This document shows, piece after piece, positions 4,227-29,113 of a DNA stretch of 32,000 bases. The position numbers and the translations under genes were made by a program. The notes below the pieces were generated by a model. The model was given only the letters and a program-made list of their open reading frames with translations. It was not told the origin of the DNA and did not search any database. Where the stretch lies: NCBI RefSeq assembly GCF_035621495.1, contig NZ_CP141821.1:368760-400759 (forward strand), read 5' to 3'. The stretch's first letter is position 1. Each line of letters starts with the position of its first letter. The DNA comes from Thermococcus sp. SY098. GTDB taxonomy: Archaea > Methanobacteriota_B > Thermococci > Thermococcales > Thermococcaceae.

Positions 4227-4300
4227 GTGTGTCAAGTGAGAACAGACAACAGTGGACTAAGTTTAAAAAGAGTTCACTGAATTAAATCTTGGGAATTACG

Positions 4301-5574: not shown

Positions 5575-6369
5575 TTAAACTTTTGTTGCCTTCTCCCAGT
5601 ATTCATTGAACTTTCCTTTAAAGAGGCTAACAACTCTAAAGTCCTTAATCCAGACTTGGGTCTCATAGTTGAAGTACCTGGCAGCCATGTCTTCAAGTGC
5701 AAAGAACACTTCCTCATCACAGATCAGCATTGGCAGTTCAAGAGTGTCAATAACCTTAAGTTCGAACTTTCCATTTTTGTAGTAGTCCATGAGCTTTGAT
5801 GCCTGCAGTCTTGGGAGTATTTGCTTGGTAACAACAATTTTAACGGTAATACCTTTTTCGATAGCTTTAATGATGTCGTCTTCAAGGTTTATTGCAACGT
5901 ATCCATCGTCTGCAAGAAGTATCTCCTTCTGGACGCCCTCAAGCATTTCTTTTGTCTTGAGTGTTGAGTTTCTGATTCCCCTGACAACCCAAACCCTTTC
6001 AACACCGTACTTTGGAATCTCTGTCTCTATCAATGGTGTCATGAGTTCAAGTAGCTCCTCCTTGGCCTTCCTCTTTGCCTCAAGCTCTTCTTTAACTCTC
6101 TCCTGCCACTCCTCAATGAATTTCTCAAGTATGTTTTTCGGGTGAACCGGTCTGTACTTGTTGACTTTGCCAGGTTGGCTGATGGCAAAGCCCTTCTTCT
6201 CCAAGCTCCTCAACACATCGTAAGTTCTTGGTGCTGGGACTTCAGAAACGCTGGCCAACTCCGCTGGAGTAAGAACTCCAAATGCGACCAAGGCAACATA
6301 TGCCCTTGCTTCGTATAAGTTCAATTCAAAATGTTCTTGTAAAAGTTCTACCATTCTGTCTTTTGCCAT
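5575..6369 (-). CDS. trmBL2: TrmB-family chromatin protein / global regulator TrmBL2
   Basis: MAKDRMVELLQEHFELNLYEARAYVALVAFGVLTPAELASVSEVPAPRTYDVLRSLEKKGF... is near-identical to my memory of Thermococcus/Pyrococcus TrmBL2. ATG at 6369 with GGTGGT upstream gives 264 aa (track start 6432 is an extension). Adjacent to reverse gyrase, as I recall in T. kodakarensis. Confidence 0.88.
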   Translation of the reverse strand: MAKDRMVELLQEHFELNLYEARAYVALVAFGVLTPAELASVSEVPAPRTYDVLRSLEKKGFAISQPGKVNKYRPVHPKNILEKFIEEWQERVKEELEAKRKAKEELLELMTPLIETEIPKYGVERVWVVRGIRNSTLKTKEMLEGVQKEILLADDGYVAINLEDDIIKAIEKGITVKIVVTKQILPRLQASKLMDYYKNGKFELKVIDTLELPMLICDEEVFFALEDMAARYFNYETQVWIKDFRVVSLFKGKFNEYWEKATKV

Positions 6370-21986: not shown

Positions 21987-22187
21987 TCAAACTTCCTCAA
22001 GCTTCTTCTTAACATCTTCAGTGTATCTCTTTGTTTCCTCTAATACATTCCTAAGGTTGCTGAGTTCAAGTTTGAGCTCACTCAGAGTTTTATTCATCTG
22101 ATAGAAGGCAAAAACGACAATGACAATGAGGATTAAACCTAAAATTATTGAAATCCATCCACTTGGTGTTCCACCATATGCAGGCAT
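21987..22187 (-). CDS. 66-aa TM + coiled-coil mini-protein
   Basis: MPAYGGTPSGWISIILGLILIVIVVFAFYQM is one TM helix, followed by a heptad-like helix (LSELKLELSNLRNVLEETKRY...). Starts 3 nt after the ArsR-type gene stop, with its SD inside that gene's end. Confidence 0.6.
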   Translation of the reverse strand: MPAYGGTPSGWISIILGLILIVIVVFAFYQMNKTLSELKLELSNLRNVLEETKRYTEDVKKKLEEV

Positions 22188-22190
22188 CCT

Positions 22191-22487
22191 TCACTCCTCC
22201 TTTAGATTTTTTATAATGTCATTATCGATTACAAACCTAAAAGGTTTTGCCCTGTAGTATTTTTTAGCCCTTGGATCACCGGGTTCAAGCCGGAGCTCAC
22301 TTTCAATGAGATTCGCTTTTTCAAGTTTTTTCAAATGGAGATACAAGAGTTGTCTTGAAATGTTAAGCTCTTTTGCAAGCTCATAAACATACCACTCCTT
22401 TTCACAGAGCATCTTGAGTATTTTGACTCTTATCGGAACACTTAATGCCTCCGCAACCACTGTCAGTTCTTGTATGCTTCCAACCAT
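22191..22487 (-). CDS. ArsR/SmtB-type winged-helix transcriptional regulator
   Basis: PIRVKILKMLCEKEWYVYELAKELNISRQLLYLHLKKLEKANLI is the ArsR-type HTH. No canonical CxC metal site in helix 3. Start is ATG 22487 or GTG 22496. Confidence 0.75.
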   Translation of the reverse strand: MVGSIQELTVVAEALSVPIRVKILKMLCEKEWYVYELAKELNISRQLLYLHLKKLEKANLIESELRLEPGDPRAKKYYRAKPFRFVIDNDIIKNLKEE

Positions 22488-22538
22488 TTTCACCACGTAA
22501 TCTAAATTATTGCATAAGCCAGAATTCCCTTACGTACT

Positions 22539-22548
22539 ATTATAAAAA
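22539..22548 (-). promoter_or_regulatory. candidate TATA box for the ArsR-type gene
   Basis: Minus-strand TTTTTATAAT about 40-50 nt upstream of the candidate starts. Confidence 0.3.
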
Positions 22549-22571
22549 GGGAAAATAAAAACTTTTCGAAA

Positions 22572-22736
22572 TTATTTTTTGGCGATTAGGTAGATCAGTG
22601 CACCAATTAGTATGAACGGCAACAGTAGGAAGGCTAACCTAAACAGCAGGAGGAATACTCCAAAGATTCCAAACCACCACCAGCCAAATCCCCACCTTCT
22701 TCTACCAAACATTGGGCCCCCAAATCCTCTGGGCAT
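22572..22736 (-). CDS. 54-aa RG/Trp-rich membrane mini-protein
   Basis: MPRGFGGPMFGRRRWGFGWWWFGIFGVFLLLFRLAFLLLPFILIGALIYLIAKK. GGTGAT-N4-ATG at 22736. The track's 73-aa version (start 22793) overlaps the upstream gene and is less likely. Confidence 0.6.
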   Translation of the reverse strand: MPRGFGGPMFGRRRWGFGWWWFGIFGVFLLLFRLAFLLLPFILIGALIYLIAKK

Positions 22737-22746
22737 TTTCATCACC

Positions 22747-23052
22747 CTACTCGGGTAGATACAACCAACCAACAATTTTATCATTATAATCAAGTGTCAC
22801 CTTAATCCCAAAGGCAGTCTGATATGCACTCCCAATGCTCAGCTCTTCAATTGAGTAATCACCGACAATTTTTCCGACATAGTGACCATAATTATCACTG
22901 AGCTTTTGGACAATGCCTCTTGATGTCTGGAACTTTTCAATCTTTATTCTTCTCAAGACATTCAATGCGTCTTCCTCAACTTCATCAACTGGAATTTCTT
23001 CAATCGGAAATTCCCCATATTCAACGAAGTGAAATATTTTAACAGCTTCCAT
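22747..23052 (-). CDS. PepSY-like small protein, no signal peptide (paralog of 26496-26960)
   Basis: The C-terminal ~64 aa (IEKFQTSRGIVQKLSDNYGHYVGKIVGDYSIEELSIGSAYQTAFGIKVTLDYNDKIVGWLYLPE) are about half identical by eye to the C-terminus of the 26496-26960 product. ATG 23052 has GGAGGATGA 7 nt upstream. Alternative ATG 23115 overlaps the upstream stop (ATGGTGA). Confidence 0.6.
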   Translation of the reverse strand: MEAVKIFHFVEYGEFPIEEIPVDEVEEDALNVLRRIKIEKFQTSRGIVQKLSDNYGHYVGKIVGDYSIEELSIGSAYQTAFGIKVTLDYNDKIVGWLYLPE

Positions 23053-23108
23053 ATTTTCATCCTCCACAGTGCTTAGCCACAAAATGGAAATATGGAAAAA
23101 GAAAGGGT

Positions 23109-23822
23109 TCACCATCTTCCTCCTCTAAATCCTCTCATACTTCTACCTCTATCATCCATTCCAGTGTTCATAGGACTCGAGATTATCTCATTATACTCAT
23201 CCTCGCTGATTACTTGGGGTTCATATGTTATACCATAATTCTGAAGCACGCTTGTGAATGCCCTTAAATGGTTCTCCGAGCCTGCCATGAGGTTTTCATA
23301 TACCTGGATTATGTCGGCATTGTCAGTCTTTGCAATCCACTCCTCCAGATCCTTGAGGTCTGTCTCCTCAATGAGTGCCCCAACCTTGAGTGCATCTTCA
23401 ATGCTTTGGCTCCCCATTGCTATAAGCTGGTCATATAAAGCCTGAAGCTCTGGGTTTGTGAATACTCCAACTTCATCTACTGCTGGATCCTCAATGCCGT
23501 ACTTTTCGAGTAAGCTTAACACTGCATCCATGTGCATCTGCTCACTGTTTGCTATGTTCCGGAATATTTGCAAACCGTACATTTCATAGAGTGTTAAATA
23601 GACATCCCTCGCCAGCTTTTCCTCTTCCCTCATCCAGAGCAGTCCATCAACCTCTTCCTGTGTGAGTGTGTCGCTTCCATAGATTGCGGCGTATGGCCTA
23701 TCCCATGTTGTGTTGCTCCCTCTATCCCATGTATCTGCCCACCATGGCATTGCTGCTACACTGCCAAATATAACACCAAACATGAGACCCAACAACCCTA
23801 AACTTAATATTTTCTTCCTCAT
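23109..23822 (-). CDS. secreted DUF2202 ferritin-like protein
   Basis: Signal peptide MRKKILSLGLLGLMFGVIFGSVAA, then LLWMREEEKLARDVYLTLYEMYGLQIFRNIANSEQMHMDAV..., the hallmark of DUF2202 (COG4902) as I recall it. Gly/Arg-rich tail RGRSMRGFRGGRW. GGAGGAGGT SD 7 nt before ATG 23822 (track start 23870 reads through the operator). Confidence 0.7.
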   Translation of the reverse strand: MRKKILSLGLLGLMFGVIFGSVAAMPWWADTWDRGSNTTWDRPYAAIYGSDTLTQEEVDGLLWMREEEKLARDVYLTLYEMYGLQIFRNIANSEQMHMDAVLSLLEKYGIEDPAVDEVGVFTNPELQALYDQLIAMGSQSIEDALKVGALIEETDLKDLEEWIAKTDNADIIQVYENLMAGSENHLRAFTSVLQNYGITYEPQVISEDEYNEIISSPMNTGMDDRGRSMRGFRGGRW

Positions 23823-23837
23823 GTTCTCGACCTCCTC

Positions 23838-23863
23838 CATATGTAACTTCATTATTACATATG
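23838..23863. promoter_or_regulatory. operator-like perfect inverted repeat, copy A
   Basis: CATATGTAA (23838-23846), 8 nt, TTACATATG (23855-23863). Begins 10 nt downstream of the TATA box and spans the expected TSS. Identical copy at 26976-27001. Confidence 0.6.
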
Positions 23864-23872
23864 TAGCCAAAC

Positions 23873-23887
23873 TTTATAAAATTTTCG
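23873..23887 (-). promoter_or_regulatory. BRE/TATA promoter of operon A
   Basis: Minus strand reads CGAAAAT-TTTATAAA (purine-rich BRE then TATA), 51 nt upstream of ATG 23822. Confidence 0.6.
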
Positions 23888-24068
23888 GTGCAAAGTAATG
23901 CCTCCAGATACAATTAGCGTTCTTGAAGATAATCGGGTTGCAATATCCTGAAAGATATACAAAAAAGCAGAACCTCTCAATCTACTTCGCTCTTTCTAAT
24001 TTTAGCAGCTTATTTAAGCATCATGATTTAATCTGCTAATAACTAAGCTGAAAAATATAAAACTGAAT

Positions 24069-25241
24069 TCAGGGCTGTTCTCTTCTTCTAACGGGCATAC
24101 GCGCTTTTCCTTTTAGGATACCTCTGCCAGCTAAATAGCAAGTTCTCAGTTCCTCCCTAAGCTTTATCATAAGCTCCTGGGCTGTGTCATAATCCCCGTT
24201 CCTTACAGCTGCTTTTATTGCCTCCATCAGTTGCAGTGCCGCTGTTACATTGACTCCTAATCTTTCCATGACCATGAGCTGAGCTTCGACTCTTATGATT
24301 TCCCTTTGTAGCTTCATCTTAATGTCGCTCATTATCATTTTTCTAATGTCCTCACCGGCAAATCTGATAACAACTTCTGCTTTGGATTTTGCGGCTATTG
24401 CAAGACCATATGCCAGTCCATACTTTCCACTGTTGTATGCATCTTTTGCATCTTCAAGTTGCTTTTCTGCTATTCTTAAGAGGGTTTTAAGGGCAGGATT
24501 TGTTGCATTCTCAGCGAGTTCTTTTGCTGTGTTCACTTTTTCCTCAGCTATTTGTATTGCCTCAAGGGCCCTCTCAGCAGTTATGTTGAGATGGAGCTCT
24601 GTGCAGTTACATTCCTGCTTTCTAAGCTGTTTCATAATGTAAAGCATTGTTTGATTCATGGTGGGGGTTCCAATTATTGTGAAGTTGCCTGCCCTGACGT
24701 GTAGCCGCTCCATAACTTTTGTAATATTCGTGGTTTGGTTCACCAGCACTATCATTGCCCTCTCACGGATTGCAAGTTGCAGTGCCTTTTCAATTCCTGC
24801 TAAATCCGTACCTGCCACGAGGATAACTTTGTTTTGTAGCTGTAGTTGAAACTTTACAGTGGCGTTTCTAATTACTGCTAAATCTGTTTCATACCTGTTC
24901 TGTCCCCACCATCTTTCAACGCTAATGCCTAAATTCTGCAGGTCTTCAACGTATTCCTCTGGAACTGCCACTGGTCCCCCAATAATAATGACCTCATCTG
25001 GGGCATAGCTGATTATCTCCGCAGTTACATTGGGATTGTAGATTCCCCAAGGAGTCTTAACTATTACAACATTCACATTTACCGTTATATTCGCAATATA
25101 ATCGGCCAATGCACAGTCCGCCTCATTATCACTCACTAAAATGACTACCATGGTTTCTGACGCATTTACAGGCGTGAATGTCAATGGGAGACCCAAGATT
25201 ATCAAGCCAAACATCACTGACAGCATTTTTTTCCACATCAT
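24069..25241 (-). CDS. secreted, sequon-rich protein with CWB2-like N-terminal modules and helical C-terminal half
   Basis: Signal peptide MMWKKMLSVMFGLIILGLPLTFTPVNA. ILVSDNEADCALADYIA...VIIIGGPVAVPEEYV...WWGQNRYETDLAV resembles cell-wall-binding-repeat-2 modules. 12 N-x-S/T sequons counted by hand. Basic tail KGKARMPVRRREQP. Own SD GGGGGTGATGGAG. Confidence 0.5.
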   Translation of the reverse strand: MMWKKMLSVMFGLIILGLPLTFTPVNASETMVVILVSDNEADCALADYIANITVNVNVVIVKTPWGIYNPNVTAEIISYAPDEVIIIGGPVAVPEEYVEDLQNLGISVERWWGQNRYETDLAVIRNATVKFQLQLQNKVILVAGTDLAGIEKALQLAIRERAMIVLVNQTTNITKVMERLHVRAGNFTIIGTPTMNQTMLYIMKQLRKQECNCTELHLNITAERALEAIQIAEEKVNTAKELAENATNPALKTLLRIAEKQLEDAKDAYNSGKYGLAYGLAIAAKSKAEVVIRFAGEDIRKMIMSDIKMKLQREIIRVEAQLMVMERLGVNVTAALQLMEAIKAAVRNGDYDTAQELMIKLREELRTCYLAGRGILKGKARMPVRRREQP

Positions 25242-25466: not shown

Positions 25467-25688
25467 TCAGGCTTCTTGAAGGACTTCATTGATGTGTTTG
25501 CTCTGATCTCTTAACTGCTGTGCCACTGAATTAGTCTGCTTGATCTCTTCAAGGAGTGCATCCAGGGATCTCTTCAACATATACAGTGAAGATGCAACTA
25601 CAATGACCAAGACTACCCAAAAGCCAATTATCAAATAATCTATCCTTGTCATTTCAGGATAAAAGGAGGAAAAATATGGCCCAGGCAT
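25467..25688 (-). CDS. 73-aa TM + coiled-coil mini-protein
   Basis: IDYLIIGFWVVLVIVVASSLYML is the TM helix, followed by LKRSLDALLEEIKQTNSVAQQLRDQSKHINEVLQEA. ATG directly abuts the upstream stop (TGAATG). Same architecture as the 66-aa protein at 21987-22187. Confidence 0.6.
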   Translation of the reverse strand: MPGPYFSSFYPEMTRIDYLIIGFWVVLVIVVASSLYMLKRSLDALLEEIKQTNSVAQQLRDQSKHINEVLQEA

Positions 25689-26333
25689 TCAACTTCCTCC
25701 CTGTTTTGCTTTTGCTATGGCTTCAGCTAAGATTTCCTTAAACTGCTCTCTGTCCAACTCATTGTTAACCTCTATCGTCTCAAGCAGCTGATCAGGCTGA
25801 GCTTCAATATTATAGTCTGCTTTTAGGATTTCAACAAGTTTTTGGGGATCTACATCATACATCTCGGCAAGTTGCTCCAATGTCAAACTCTTTAACATAG
25901 AGCCCGTTATCTCTATTGTTGTGTTATCAACCGTTACCGATATCTCTTCAGGTGATGTAGTCTCGGATGTAGTTTCTTCCTCGGCAGTTAATGCGGCAAA
26001 CGCAAAATATCCACCAGCAAGTACTAAGCTAATTAAGATTAGACTTCCAACCACTTTAGCCCTACTTTTCTTAAATGCAGATTTGAGCATGACAACCATG
26101 CTGTTGAATCCGATTATTAAATGAACTGCCACTAAACCAATCATGACAAATCCCAGATATGTATGTACTGTTTCCCAAGTGTCCTTAGTTACACCCAAGA
26201 ACGTCCACCCAATGGCGTCTGCTATTCTGCCTGACGGTGCTTGATAAAGCGCAATTCCAGATATCGCCACAAGTACAAACACCACTGTCAAAACTAAATC
26301 AACTGTCCCCCTTAACCAAGCTGGTGCCTTCAT
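25689..26333 (-). CDS. DUF4405-type membrane protein with extracytoplasmic C-terminal domain
   Basis: LRGTVDLVLTVVFVLVAISGIALY...TWETVHTYLGFVMIGLVAVHLIIGFN fits the DUF4405 pattern (H-x13-H in one helix). Third TM, then an acidic Thr/Ser linker and a helical domain. GGTGAT-N4-ATG at 26333 (alternatives 26339 and 26348). Confidence 0.6.
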   Translation of the reverse strand: MKAPAWLRGTVDLVLTVVFVLVAISGIALYQAPSGRIADAIGWTFLGVTKDTWETVHTYLGFVMIGLVAVHLIIGFNSMVVMLKSAFKKSRAKVVGSLILISLVLAGGYFAFAALTAEEETTSETTSPEEISVTVDNTTIEITGSMLKSLTLEQLAEMYDVDPQKLVEILKADYNIEAQPDQLLETIEVNNELDREQFKEILAEAIAKAKQGGS

Positions 26334-26338
26334 TTCCA

Positions 26339-26495: not shown

Positions 26496-26960
26496 TCACT
26501 TCATAAGGAAGAACCCCACAATATCCCCATCATAGCTTAGGAATACTTTTATTCCGTTTTGAGTCTCGTATGCTTTGTACACTTCAAGTGAGCTGAGGTC
26601 GTAGTCACCTACTATCTTTCCAATGTATTCTCCATCAAGCACCAACTTTTGCACTGTAATTCCTCTTGGAGTAGTGAACTCCTCAATGGTGACACCGCTT
26701 AGATATTCTTGTATCTGCTGCTCATCAACATTGGCTTCTCCAAGGTATTGCCCTTTGATTCCAAGCCCCATAAACTGAGGAGTTCCCTTTCCATGCTCAC
26801 CATTTTGACCATGCATGTATCTTGCTTTGACAAAGTTTTCACATGGACATTCTGTTGTGCCTGCTGTTTCTGAAGGGACACCCTGATATGCTGCAGCTGC
26901 TCCAAATACCAAACCAAATACCAAAGCCAACAACCCAATACCTAATATTTTCTTTCTCAT
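26496..26960 (-). CDS. secreted PepSY-like protein with Cys/His-rich N-terminal segment
   Basis: Signal peptide MRKKILGIGLLALVFGLVFGAAAA (paralogous to the DUF2202 leader), then TTECPCENFVKARYMHGQNGEHGKG, then a PepSY-like C-terminus homologous to 22747-23052. GGAGAGG SD before ATG 26960 (track start 26990 reads through the operator). Confidence 0.65.
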   Translation of the reverse strand: MRKKILGIGLLALVFGLVFGAAAAYQGVPSETAGTTECPCENFVKARYMHGQNGEHGKGTPQFMGLGIKGQYLGEANVDEQQIQEYLSGVTIEEFTTPRGITVQKLVLDGEYIGKIVGDYDLSSLEVYKAYETQNGIKVFLSYDGDIVGFFLMK

Positions 26961-26975
26961 GTTGAACCGCCTCTC

Positions 26976-27001
26976 CATATGTAACTTCATTATTACATAT
27001 G
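26976..27001. promoter_or_regulatory. operator-like perfect inverted repeat, copy B
   Basis: CATATGTAA (26976-26984), 8 nt, TTACATATG (26993-27001). Identical in sequence, spacer and position relative to the TATA as copy A. Confidence 0.6.
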
Positions 27002-27010
27002 TAGCTAAAC

Positions 27011-27025
27011 TTTATAAAGTTTTCG
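27011..27025 (-). promoter_or_regulatory. BRE/TATA promoter of operon B
   Basis: Minus strand reads CGAAAAC-TTTATAAA, 51 nt upstream of ATG 26960, the same geometry as copy A. Confidence 0.6.
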
Positions 27026-27250
27026 GTTCAAAAAAAGAGCACTGGATGTTCGAAATTAGCCATCAATGATCGCAAACAATTCATGTTGCACCGTTTATTA
27101 CGGAGAAGCTTCGAAAAATTTTGCTAAACAGAAAAATTTATTTGAATAGAGATCGTTAAATATTTATATTTTCTCAAGATGGAGCAGTTAAAGGTTTTTG
27201 TGAACTCAAAACTTTTATAGAATTTCACCATTATGAAATACGGTGGTTCT

Positions 27251-29113
27251 ATGAAAGGTTGGTGGGGAAGAATTTTAAGAGTTGATTTAACAAACAACAA
27301 AGTCAAAGTGCAGGAATATTCTCCAGAAATTGCTCAACTTTTCATCGGTGGAAGGGGATTGGCAGCAAAGATTCTCTGGGATGAAGTCAAGGGAGTTGAT
27401 CCTCTTAGCCCGGAAAACAAGCTTGTCATAGCAGCTGGACCATTTAACGGCCTCCCAACACCAAGCGGAGGAAAATTGGTGGTTGCCGCTAAGAGCCCAC
27501 TTACTGGGGGATATGGGGACGGAAACATAGGAACAATGGCAACTGTGCATCTTAGAAAAGCTGGTTATGATGCCATTGTTATTGAAGGAAAAGCCAAAAA
27601 GCCCGTGTATCTTTACGTTGAAGATGATAATGTAAGCATTCTCAGTGCTGAGGGACTCTGGGGTCTTGATACCTTTAAGACCGAGGAAGAGCTGAAGAAG
27701 ATACACGGCAAGAATGTGGGCATATTGAGCATTGGACCAGGTGGCGAGAATTTAGTGAAATATGCAGTTATAATGTCACAAGAAGGAAGAGCCGGAGGAA
27801 GACCTGGTATTGGTGCAGTAATGGGAAGCAAGAAGCTTAAGGCTATTGTAATTAAAGGAACAAAGGAAATTCCCGTAGCAGATAAAGAAGAGTTAAGAAA
27901 ACTAAGCAAAGAGGCTTACGATGAGATACTGAGTAAGCCGACCTATGAGTTCTGGCACCGTCAGGGAACGATGGCAGCTGTAGAATGGACAAATGAAAAC
28001 TCAGCACTTCCAACATACAACTTCCAAGACGGTTCATTCAAGTTTGCAAGATCAATTGACGGTTACACCTTAGAGGGTATGAAGGTCAAGCAGCGTGGCT
28101 GTCCCTACTGTAACATGCCCTGTGGAAACGTTGTTCTTGACGCCGAAGGATTGGAGAGCGAGCTCGATTATGAAAACGTTGCTTTGCTTGGCTCAAACCT
28201 TGGAATTGGACAGCTCAATAAGGTTGCAGTTTTGAACAGACTCGCCGACATGTACGGTCTTGACACGATATCTTTGGGCGGCTCAATAGCGTTTGTCATG
28301 GAAGCTGTTGAGAAAGGACTTCTCAAAGAAGGCCCAACGTTCGGAGACTACAAGGGAGCAAAAGAACTCGTCAAAGAGATCGCATTCAGGAGTAGCGAGC
28401 TTGGAAACTTCGCCGCTGAAGGTGTAATGAGAATGGCTCAAAAAGTGGAAGGAGGCGAAAACTTTGCAATGCACGTTAAAGGATTAGAGGTCAGTGGTTA
28501 CAACAGTTATATCTATCCCGCAATGGCACTTGCATTTGCAACATCATCAATCGGTGCCCACCACAAGGAAGCATGGGTTATTGCTTGGGAAATCGGTACA
28601 GCACCAATTGAAGGAGAGCAGGCAAAGAAGGTTGAGTACAAGATCACATATAGCCCAGAAAAGGCTGCAAAGGTTATTGAGCTGCAGAGATACAGAGGTG
28701 GACTGTTCGAGATGCTCTCTGCATGTAGGCTGCCATGGATTGAGGTTGGACTAAGCATTGACTATTATCCAAAGCTCCTGAAGGCAATAACCGGAGTCAC
28801 ATACACATGGGGCGACCTCTTTGCAGCAGCTGACAGGCTCTATGCATTGATTAGAGCTTACTGGGTTAGAGAGTTCAACGGAAACTGGAGCAGGAGGATG
28901 GACTATCCACCAAAGAGATGGTTCATTGAGGGACTCAAGAGCGGGCCATACAAAGGCAAGCACCTTGAGGAGGACAAGTACGACAAGCTGCTCAGTGAAT
29001 ACTACAAGATGCGCGGCTGGGACGAGAGAGGAATCCCAACTAAGGAAACACTCCAGAAGCTCAAGCTTGACTTCGTCATTCCAGAGCTTGAGAAGGTTAC
29101 GGAGCTTCATTAA
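27251..29113 (+). CDS. for: tungsten-containing formaldehyde:ferredoxin oxidoreductase (AOR family)
   Basis: [62 protein letters not shown].. is very close to my memory of P. furiosus FOR over the full length. GGTGGT SD before ATG 27251 gives 620 aa. CTTTTATAGAA TATA about 35 nt upstream. Confidence 0.9.

Follow-up and report, generated by a model that had tools for sequence, protein, structure and literature searches.

A palindrome over two predicted start sites in Thermococcus sp. SY098 is the probable operator of an ArsR-type repressor with relatives in bacteria

Introduction

A perfect 26-bp inverted repeat stands at the heads of two neighbouring minus-strand operons in the window, by which we mean the whole 32,000-nucleotide stretch of Thermococcus sp. 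SY098 DNA analysed here. What is the element for, and which protein, if any, reads it? Few operator-regulator pairs are known in Thermococcales, and fewer are common to bacteria. The regulon at stake is testable, comprising no fewer than two promoters in the window and three in a close relative, and would control secreted ferritin-like and heme-cytochrome proteins in a genetically tractable piezophile. We assign a probability of about 0.8 to the reading that the palindrome is the autoregulated operator of a 98-aa ArsR-type repressor encoded at 22191-22487, placed over the start site of both promoters; comparison of sequences across archaea and bacteria is its basis.

Results

Two identical palindromes on two equivalent promoters

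By pattern scan, CATATGTAA-N8-TTACATATG is present exactly twice in the window, and a scan allowing 3 mismatches returns no additional site. Both copies are identical, spacer included (plus strand, CATATGTAACTTCATTATTACATATG), at precisely the positions given in the first-pass annotation. Two or more matches to the palindrome occur in none of 100 dinucleotide shuffles of the window. The promoter features are as follows.

23838..23863: candidate operator 1, a perfect 9-N8-9 palindrome on the predicted start site of the DUF2202 operon
26976..27001: candidate operator 2, the same palindrome on the predicted start site of the PepSY-like/DUF4405 operon
23873..23888, minus strand: BRE (CCGAAAA, 23888..23882) and TATA (TTTTATAAA, 23881..23873) of promoter 1
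27011..27026, minus strand: BRE (CCGAAAA) and TATA (CTTTATAAA, 27019..27011) of promoter 2
23850, minus strand: predicted transcription start 1, at spacer position 5 (G preceded by T), which places TATA at -31..-23
26988, minus strand: predicted transcription start 2, with the geometry of start 1

Each palindrome serves a minus-strand operon in the order BRE/TATA, 9 nt, palindrome, 15 nt containing a Shine-Dalgarno sequence, and ATG. At promoter 1, the palindrome (23863..23838 on the minus strand) is followed by GAGGAGGTCGAGAAC and then by the ATG at 23822, with the Shine-Dalgarno sequence GAGGAGGT within the 15 nt that separate them. Promoter 2 has the same spacings (TATA 27019..27011, palindrome 27001..26976, ATG 26960), so that the geometry proposed earlier, with the palindrome beginning 10 nt downstream of TATA and ending ~16 nt before the start codon, is right at both sites.

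Transcription start sites in T. onnurineus follow an 8-bp TATA box located between -30 and -20, with its centre ~27 nt upstream of the start, and have a pyrimidine at -1 and a purine at +1 (PMC5316973). From this rule we infer starts at 23850 and 26988, and the palindrome would span about -13 to +13 of both promoters. The earlier placement of the palindrome over the start site agrees with this prediction, since the element, 9 nt after a conserved BRE/TATA, is centred on the start expected from the Thermococcales TATA rule (PMC5316973). All promoters compared have T at spacer position 4 and mostly purines at positions 5-8. The orthologous gene TON_1148 has no entry in the T. onnurineus start-site table. 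It is well expressed in all three T. onnurineus media tested (RPKM about 1800-2200) although its palindrome is exact; repression in T. onnurineus is thus not tight under laboratory conditions, and the system may be at least partly open in such conditions. A scan of the region for sigma-70 promoters and terminators was uninformative, with 20 promoter-like sites where chance would give 15.5.

A 60-nt block of 95% identity is common to both promoters, and the adjoining signal-peptide coding sequence is 76% identical. On this evidence, the two window copies are related through duplication or gene conversion. They therefore provide no independent evidence of function, which has to come from other species. 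The 9-nt linkers (23864-23872 and 27002-27010 here; 721-729 and 5951-5959 in the P. pacificus locus, L004) vary between species and are near-identical between the paralogous promoters of one genome (gtttRgcta twice here, ctattgatg twice in P. pacificus), a pattern suggestive of concerted evolution, or of gene conversion from one promoter to the other.

In public gene calls, the DUF2202 protein has 247 aa (P0001, P0004) and starts at an ATG at 23852 inside the operator spacer, 10 codons upstream of the start of the 237-aa product. The true start is probably the ATG at 23822, judging from its Shine-Dalgarno sequence, the signal-peptide-like N-terminus that follows and the absence of the upstream ATG from the spacers of other species; the annotated start codon of the first gene of operon 1 would be corrected accordingly.

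Conservation of the arms in archaea

Thirteen Thermococcales promoters were reached via protein look-ups, without using the motif. Their column identity is 100% in the left arm, 97% in the right arm and 80% in the spacer, 93% in the BRE and 90% in the TATA box, and 55% in the 9-nt linker and 57% in the upstream flank. Near-invariant arms beside a variable linker and flank are the footprint of selection on the arms, and go beyond what promoter duplication alone would leave.

Synteny of the cluster extends to T. barophilus MP, Thermococcus sp. LS2 and Palaeococcus pacificus, and in these three species the arms are perfect and the spacers differ (TAATGAAG, TAATAGAG, TATTGAAC, TATTAGAC). Orthologues of operator 2 are exact in T. 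barophilus MP (L001, 2852) and P. pacificus (L004, 730). The palindrome is also exact on the T. onnurineus-like contig that encodes the TON_1148 protein and, in Pyrococcus abyssi GE5, before a minimal operon of DUF2202, regulator and 69-aa genes. A Thermococcus strain that has the T. onnurineus regulator carries two palindrome sites with one mismatch in each, and a close relative, MAG S139, has a third palindrome before another DUF2202 gene (L028). Arms are likewise conserved on metagenome contigs reached via proteins, and at Archaeoglobales-type loci the distance from TATA to palindrome is just 1-4 nt. A Methanophagaceae (ANME-1) contig, L038, carries two exact palindromes 1.9 kb apart (4275-4300 and 6194-6219), one of them 11 nt upstream of a regulator homologue and the other ~200 nt from a weaker ArsR-like ORF.

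A conserved winged-helix regulator encoded in operon 1

The regulator gene and its surroundings comprise the following elements.

22191..22487, minus strand: ArsR-type winged-helix regulator of 98 aa, the proposed operator-binding repressor (HTH_5 match, fold, co-occurrence with the palindrome)
22510..22568, minus strand: probable internal promoter of the regulator gene, with BRE/TATA at 22554-22568 followed by two degenerate half-site-like direct repeats
22530-22537 and 22510-22518, minus strand: the half-site-like direct repeats, of speculative role

The regulator passes the Pfam cut-offs for HTH_5 (49.2 bits, cut-off 22) and HTH_20 (35.7 bits, cut-off 27). Its AlphaFold2 model (pLDDT 94.9) is a canonical ArsR/SmtB winged helix composed of H5-14, H18-29, H34-41, H45-57, E61-67 and E74-80, with helices 1-4 and the wing all present. 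The top structural matches in the PDB are Phr (2p4w), then HlyU, NolR, CzrA and SmtB. The recognition helix, ISRQLLYLHL, contains S44, R45, L47, H51 and L52, which are invariant from archaea to bacteria (alignment A1).

The earlier reading implied a response to metals. As judged by eye, alignments A1 and A4 contain no conserved Cys or His column besides the recognition-helix H51, and the single Cys of the regulator, C28, is replaced in the other archaeal and all bacterial members; with no conserved Cys/His ligand position, direct metal sensing is unlikely. The regulator also scores 44.2 bits against NCBIfam HTH_metalloreg, below the cut-off of 55, and falls below the cut-off of every specific NCBIfam model, including those for metalloregulators, Phr, SdpR and BigR. 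The implied metal responsiveness thus finds no support in ligands or family models.

The internal BRE/TATA core (CGAAAAG-TTTTTATT) is invariant in 10 Thermococcales loci (alignment A5), and in ~6 of these 10 it is followed by direct half-site-like repeats, TAYGTAA ... CTTATGYAA. The internal element may be a weaker promoter, with a predicted start near 22531, that allows partial autoregulation. A second palindromic operator upstream of the regulator gene (12/18 match) was considered and rejected, since the aligned repeats are direct, not inverted.

Coupling of palindrome and regulator in both domains

Two tests, one starting from the motif and the other from the protein, link the palindrome to this type of regulator. 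The motif-first test searched a genome collection, with one genome per species, for the exact palindrome and returned 94 occurrences in 92 stretches. A regulator homologue starts within ~450 bp of 38 of the 94, against ~2 expected given how often such genes occur in the rest of these loci. Nearly all of the 38 are bacterial (Rhizomicrobium, Bradyrhizobium, Lysinibacillus, Neobacillus, Brevibacillus, Clostridia, Actinobacteria and others), and a further 14 of the 94 palindromes lie in archaeal clusters with DUF2202, DUF4405 or related cargo. The remaining 42 have no detectable regulator homologue nearby; some are chance occurrences and others may be sites of different regulators. These counts are lower bounds, since T. 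barophilus, P. pacificus and P. abyssi, whose loci carry exact sites, are missing from the scan output.

The protein-first test examined 80 metagenome loci picked solely by the recognition-helix peptide SR[PQ]LL[YH][LM]HL and verified with tblastn. In 40 of them, the palindrome lies upstream of the operon with no more than 3 mismatches in 18, in variants of the form CAYRTGTAAT-N6-ATTACAYRTG; 40 scrambled palindromes of the same composition match a mean of 0.3 loci (maximum 4).

In bacteria, the palindrome lies directly upstream of the regulator gene or overlaps it, often with the partner gene described below as the sole extra cargo. A TTGACA-like -35 box mostly precedes it by 8-11 nt, and the last three bases of the left arm with the first three of the spacer (TAATAT, TAATAA, TAAGAA and similar) occupy the -10 position. 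The inverted repeat thus lies over the start (predicted, in archaea) or the -10 box (in bacteria) of the regulator's own operon, as in an autoregulated repressor. Archaea and bacteria differ in their transcription machineries, yet the element covers the core promoter in both, which fits a repressor acting on DNA.

Together with the recognition helix common to both domains, the two comparative tests make the local regulator by far the best candidate for the binding protein. The first-pass annotation had named the gene at 22191-22487 as the obvious candidate, and two independent tests spanning archaea and bacteria now tie it to the palindrome; its reading of the element as a repressor operator is likewise supported by geometry and comparison, with binding and repression as the predicted consequences.

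Several groups of sites deviate from the common arrangement. A distant ArsR subgroup (L017, L018, L045, L058, L078; also L010 and L035) has a variant, CATATGTAAC-N6-GTTACATATG, at the promoter and is mostly paired with an AHSA1/SRPBCC-domain gene and no small membrane protein; in L017, a DUF4287/DUF5655 protein is encoded ~550 nt downstream instead. At eight Bacillales loci (L013, L024, L048, L053, L057, L080, L084, L092), the terminal ATG of the right arm is the first in-frame start of the regulator; the operator also contains the -10 box, and the mRNA then probably has little or no leader. Several exact palindromes with no detectable regulator homologue form small groups (L031, L042 and L051; L006 and L032; L025, L060 and L082). 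Such sites in Niveispirillum and Paracoccus have CATATGTAAAGC-N4-CTTTACATATG in common, two MAGs share extended flanks and three gut contigs are almost identical. Other regulators may bind at these groups of sites, or the sites may belong to mobile DNA.

A small membrane partner beside the regulator

Both operons encode a small membrane protein.

21987..22187, minus strand: 66-aa single-pass membrane protein with a coiled-coil C-terminus, the proposed signal relay, 3 nt after the regulator gene
25467..25688, minus strand: 73-aa paralogue of the 66-aa partner, in operon 2 (alignment A3)

In bacteria, a partner gene of 70-95 aa follows the regulator gene, or precedes it in many Clostridia. In the bacterial partner, a single N-terminal membrane helix leads via a basic stretch into a coiled coil that closes with IEKxLKEVE; the archaeal proteins of 66 and 73 aa are built alike, with KKLEEV at the end. 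A profile-profile comparison of the two gives 93% probability (E 3e-7) over 28 C-terminal columns, the match on which the proposed archaeal-bacterial homology of the partner rests. Among assessable loci, a family member adjoins the regulator in about 75%: 34 of 44 from the motif-first test and 38 of 51 from the protein-first test. The many Lys and Arg residues just past the membrane helix suggest, by the positive-inside rule, that the coiled coil is cytoplasmic. The family is unnamed in Pfam and NCBIfam. A Pfam/NCBIfam profile search gives no PspB match for the window proteins, and bacterial homologues score 20.4 and 19.7 against PspB, below the respective cut-offs of 25.6 and 51.7.

Cargo and neighbouring genes

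The remaining genes of the cluster are as follows.

23109..23822, minus strand: operon 1, gene 1, secreted ferritin-like DUF2202 protein (Pfam DUF2202, E 8e-65; signal-peptide-like N-terminus)
22747..23115, minus strand: operon 1, gene 2, 122-aa protein with no Pfam family
22572..22733, minus strand: operon 1, gene 3, small Gly/Arg/Trp-rich membrane protein, conserved in synteny
26496..26960, minus strand: operon 2, gene 1, secreted 154-aa protein
25689..26336, minus strand: operon 2, DUF4405 membrane protein (Pfam DUF4405, E 6e-17)
24069..25241, minus strand: 390-aa secreted protein downstream of operon 2, conserved in synteny

The DUF2202 protein is 96% identical to TERMP_00782 of T. barophilus MP. 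The 122-aa protein of operon 1 and the 154-aa protein of operon 2 have related C-terminal domains and cross-match in tblastn. A 225-nt gap precedes the gene of the 390-aa protein, which may form a separate transcription unit. DUF4405 proteins bind heme b and have been proposed as transmembrane electron carriers (PMC11334425), and ferrosome gene clusters contain members of both DUF4405 and the ferritin-like DUF2202 family (bioRxiv 10.1101/2020.01.10.902569). The ferritin-like DUF2202 protein, the DUF4405 cytochrome and the secreted proteins of PepSY-like size point to extracytoplasmic iron or redox handling in the archaea. The cargo is DUF6010 or another small membrane protein in Alphaproteobacteria, and an ABC transporter, GDSL lipase or CAAX-type protease in Clostridia; across the loci compared, regulator, operator and partner appear as the constant parts and the cargo differs.

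A gene for a tungsten-type aldehyde/formaldehyde ferredoxin oxidoreductase (AFOR_N/AFOR_C) adjoins the cluster in the window (27233-29113) as well as in T. barophilus MP and P. abyssi (L179, 6725-8599), and in P. pacificus the locus tag of FOR (PAP_08640) is close to that of the cluster (PAP_08575). In LS2 (L003, 3604-5908) and P. pacificus (L004, 4820-5890), a CitMHS-family permease gene on the opposite strand lies between the operons, with MFS genes also in the LS2 insert. A further DUF2202 paralogue occurs there as well and lacks the palindrome.

Weighing of alternative readings

The nearest competitor, though an unlikely one, holds that the palindrome is the operator of a different factor encoded elsewhere and that the local ArsR-type gene is regulated cargo. 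Archaeal genomes are rich in winged-helix proteins, the Thermococcales palindrome lies 1.3 kb from the regulator gene, at the operon head and not directly upstream, and the regulator apparently has its own internal promoter. A factor encoded elsewhere would leave unexplained why, in bacteria, the palindrome stands immediately before the homologous regulator gene or overlaps it, often with the partner alone as cargo; the protein-first coupling of 40/80 against 0.3 and the recognition helix conserved across domains likewise favour the local protein. That this protein binds but acts as an activator or dual regulator is somewhat less probable again. TON_1148 is highly expressed although the palindrome is present, and some archaeal winged-helix regulators, such as SurR and TrmBL1, act both ways. 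Archaeal activation sites lie upstream of the BRE, however, and the site here is centred on the predicted start, downstream of the TATA box, while the bacterial element covers the -10 box and the -35/-10 spacer, the position of a repressor.

The suggestion that the palindrome acts as a 5'UTR RNA hairpin, which would modulate translation or stability, is very improbable and was rejected. As RNA, the 26-mer does fold at 37 °C (-8.6 kcal/mol, z -4.7), yet with the start predicted in the spacer just one arm, the downstream one, would be transcribed, and the 5'UTRs predicted from that start are not significantly structured (z 0.6 and -0.9). Folding predictions at 75 and 85 °C leave the full hairpin melted; T. 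barophilus grows near 85 °C. Across the 13 Thermococcales promoters the arms are invariant, with a compensatory change at no arm position, an Rfam search of the element gives no match, and in bacteria the -10 box lies inside the element. Least credible of all is a functionless element, a chance palindrome copied with its promoter. The 95%-identical block common to both promoters is what such copying would leave, but the arms are kept across genera beside variable neighbouring bases and the palindrome recurs beside homologous regulators in distant phyla; the comparative data already contradict this reading.

Discussion

Proposed mechanism

From the observed sequence, geometry, conservation and statistical coupling of regulator, operator and partner, we infer a mechanism in which the palindrome is the operator of the local ArsR-type repressor. 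A homodimer would place one recognition helix on each CATATGTAA arm. TBP and TFB could still bind the BRE/TATA 9 nt upstream, and with the repressor in place RNA polymerase would not be recruited, or the start site would not be opened. Because the repressor gene lies inside operon 1, this operon would be negatively autoregulated, and operon 2 would be co-regulated by the same repressor. Derepression would probably not proceed via direct metal binding; more likely it would involve the small membrane coiled-coil partner, which could, for example, hold the repressor at the membrane when a signal is present. By analogy with SdpR-SdpI, discussed below, we hypothesize that a signal from the membrane or envelope reaches the repressor through the partner.

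A broader and more tentative proposal, which we hold to be possible but on balance doubtful, is that the regulator, CATATGTAA-N8-TTACATATG and the partner constitute an undescribed two-component-like switch of archaea and bacteria, in which a membrane sensor tethers the repressor. In piezophilic Thermococcales, such a switch would couple the state of the membrane or envelope (pressure, iron/redox, damage) to an extracytoplasmic ferritin-like and cytochrome output. If the partner does relay a membrane signal, the module would represent a compact signalling device common to both prokaryotic domains.

The repressor, operator and small membrane partner define a widespread module, unnamed in current family databases and found from deep-sea archaea to soil and gut bacteria. 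A literature search returned no prior description of the operator, of its conservation in both domains or of the constant small membrane partner, and nothing on the cluster or the regulator. The TERMP locus tags of the cluster are absent from the supplement of the T. barophilus SurR/pressure paper, and the published ArsR regulators of P. pacificus and T. piezophilus are different genes.

Comparison with known systems

PspB/PspC-type sensors resemble the partner in layout, with one membrane helix at the N-terminus and a cytoplasmic coiled coil after it. No PspA or PspF is present, and the partner is not a PspB member.

Phr of P. furiosus (2p4w) is nearest to the regulator in both structure and sequence (phmmer E 8e-7), with a Foldseek TM of 0.71, an rmsd of 1.2 Å and 36% identity over 75 residues. 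It is likewise an ArsR-type winged helix of Thermococcales, an autoregulated repressor that binds over the start site. Phr has ~200 aa and a long C-terminal dimerisation helix, whereas the regulator has 98 aa and a short C-terminal helix, and its score against NCBIfam Phr_regulator (35.7 bits) lies far below the cut-off of 320. Phr also has a different operator and is not known to have a membrane partner.

The metal sensors SmtB, CzrA and ArsR have the fold and the Pfam family (HTH_5) in common with the regulator. Metal-sensing ArsR/SmtB proteins and the proposed system are alike in being small dimeric autorepressors with an inverted repeat overlapping the promoter; the proposed system differs in its operator sequence, in having no conserved ligands and in its conserved membrane partner.

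In Bacillus subtilis, the proposed role of the membrane protein SdpI is to lift repression by retaining SdpR, an ArsR-family autorepressor, at the membrane (PMC2910880). As here, the gene of an ArsR-family autorepressor stands beside a membrane-protein gene in one operon. SdpI is a multi-pass immunity protein, while the partner has a single membrane helix and a coiled coil; no toxin gene is present here, and the regulator, at 30.4 bits against the NCBIfam repress_SdpR cut-off of 100, is outside the SdpR family, so that the resemblance is limited to the proposed mechanism. An autoregulated ArsR-type repressor with a palindromic operator over its promoter is, as a kind, well known.
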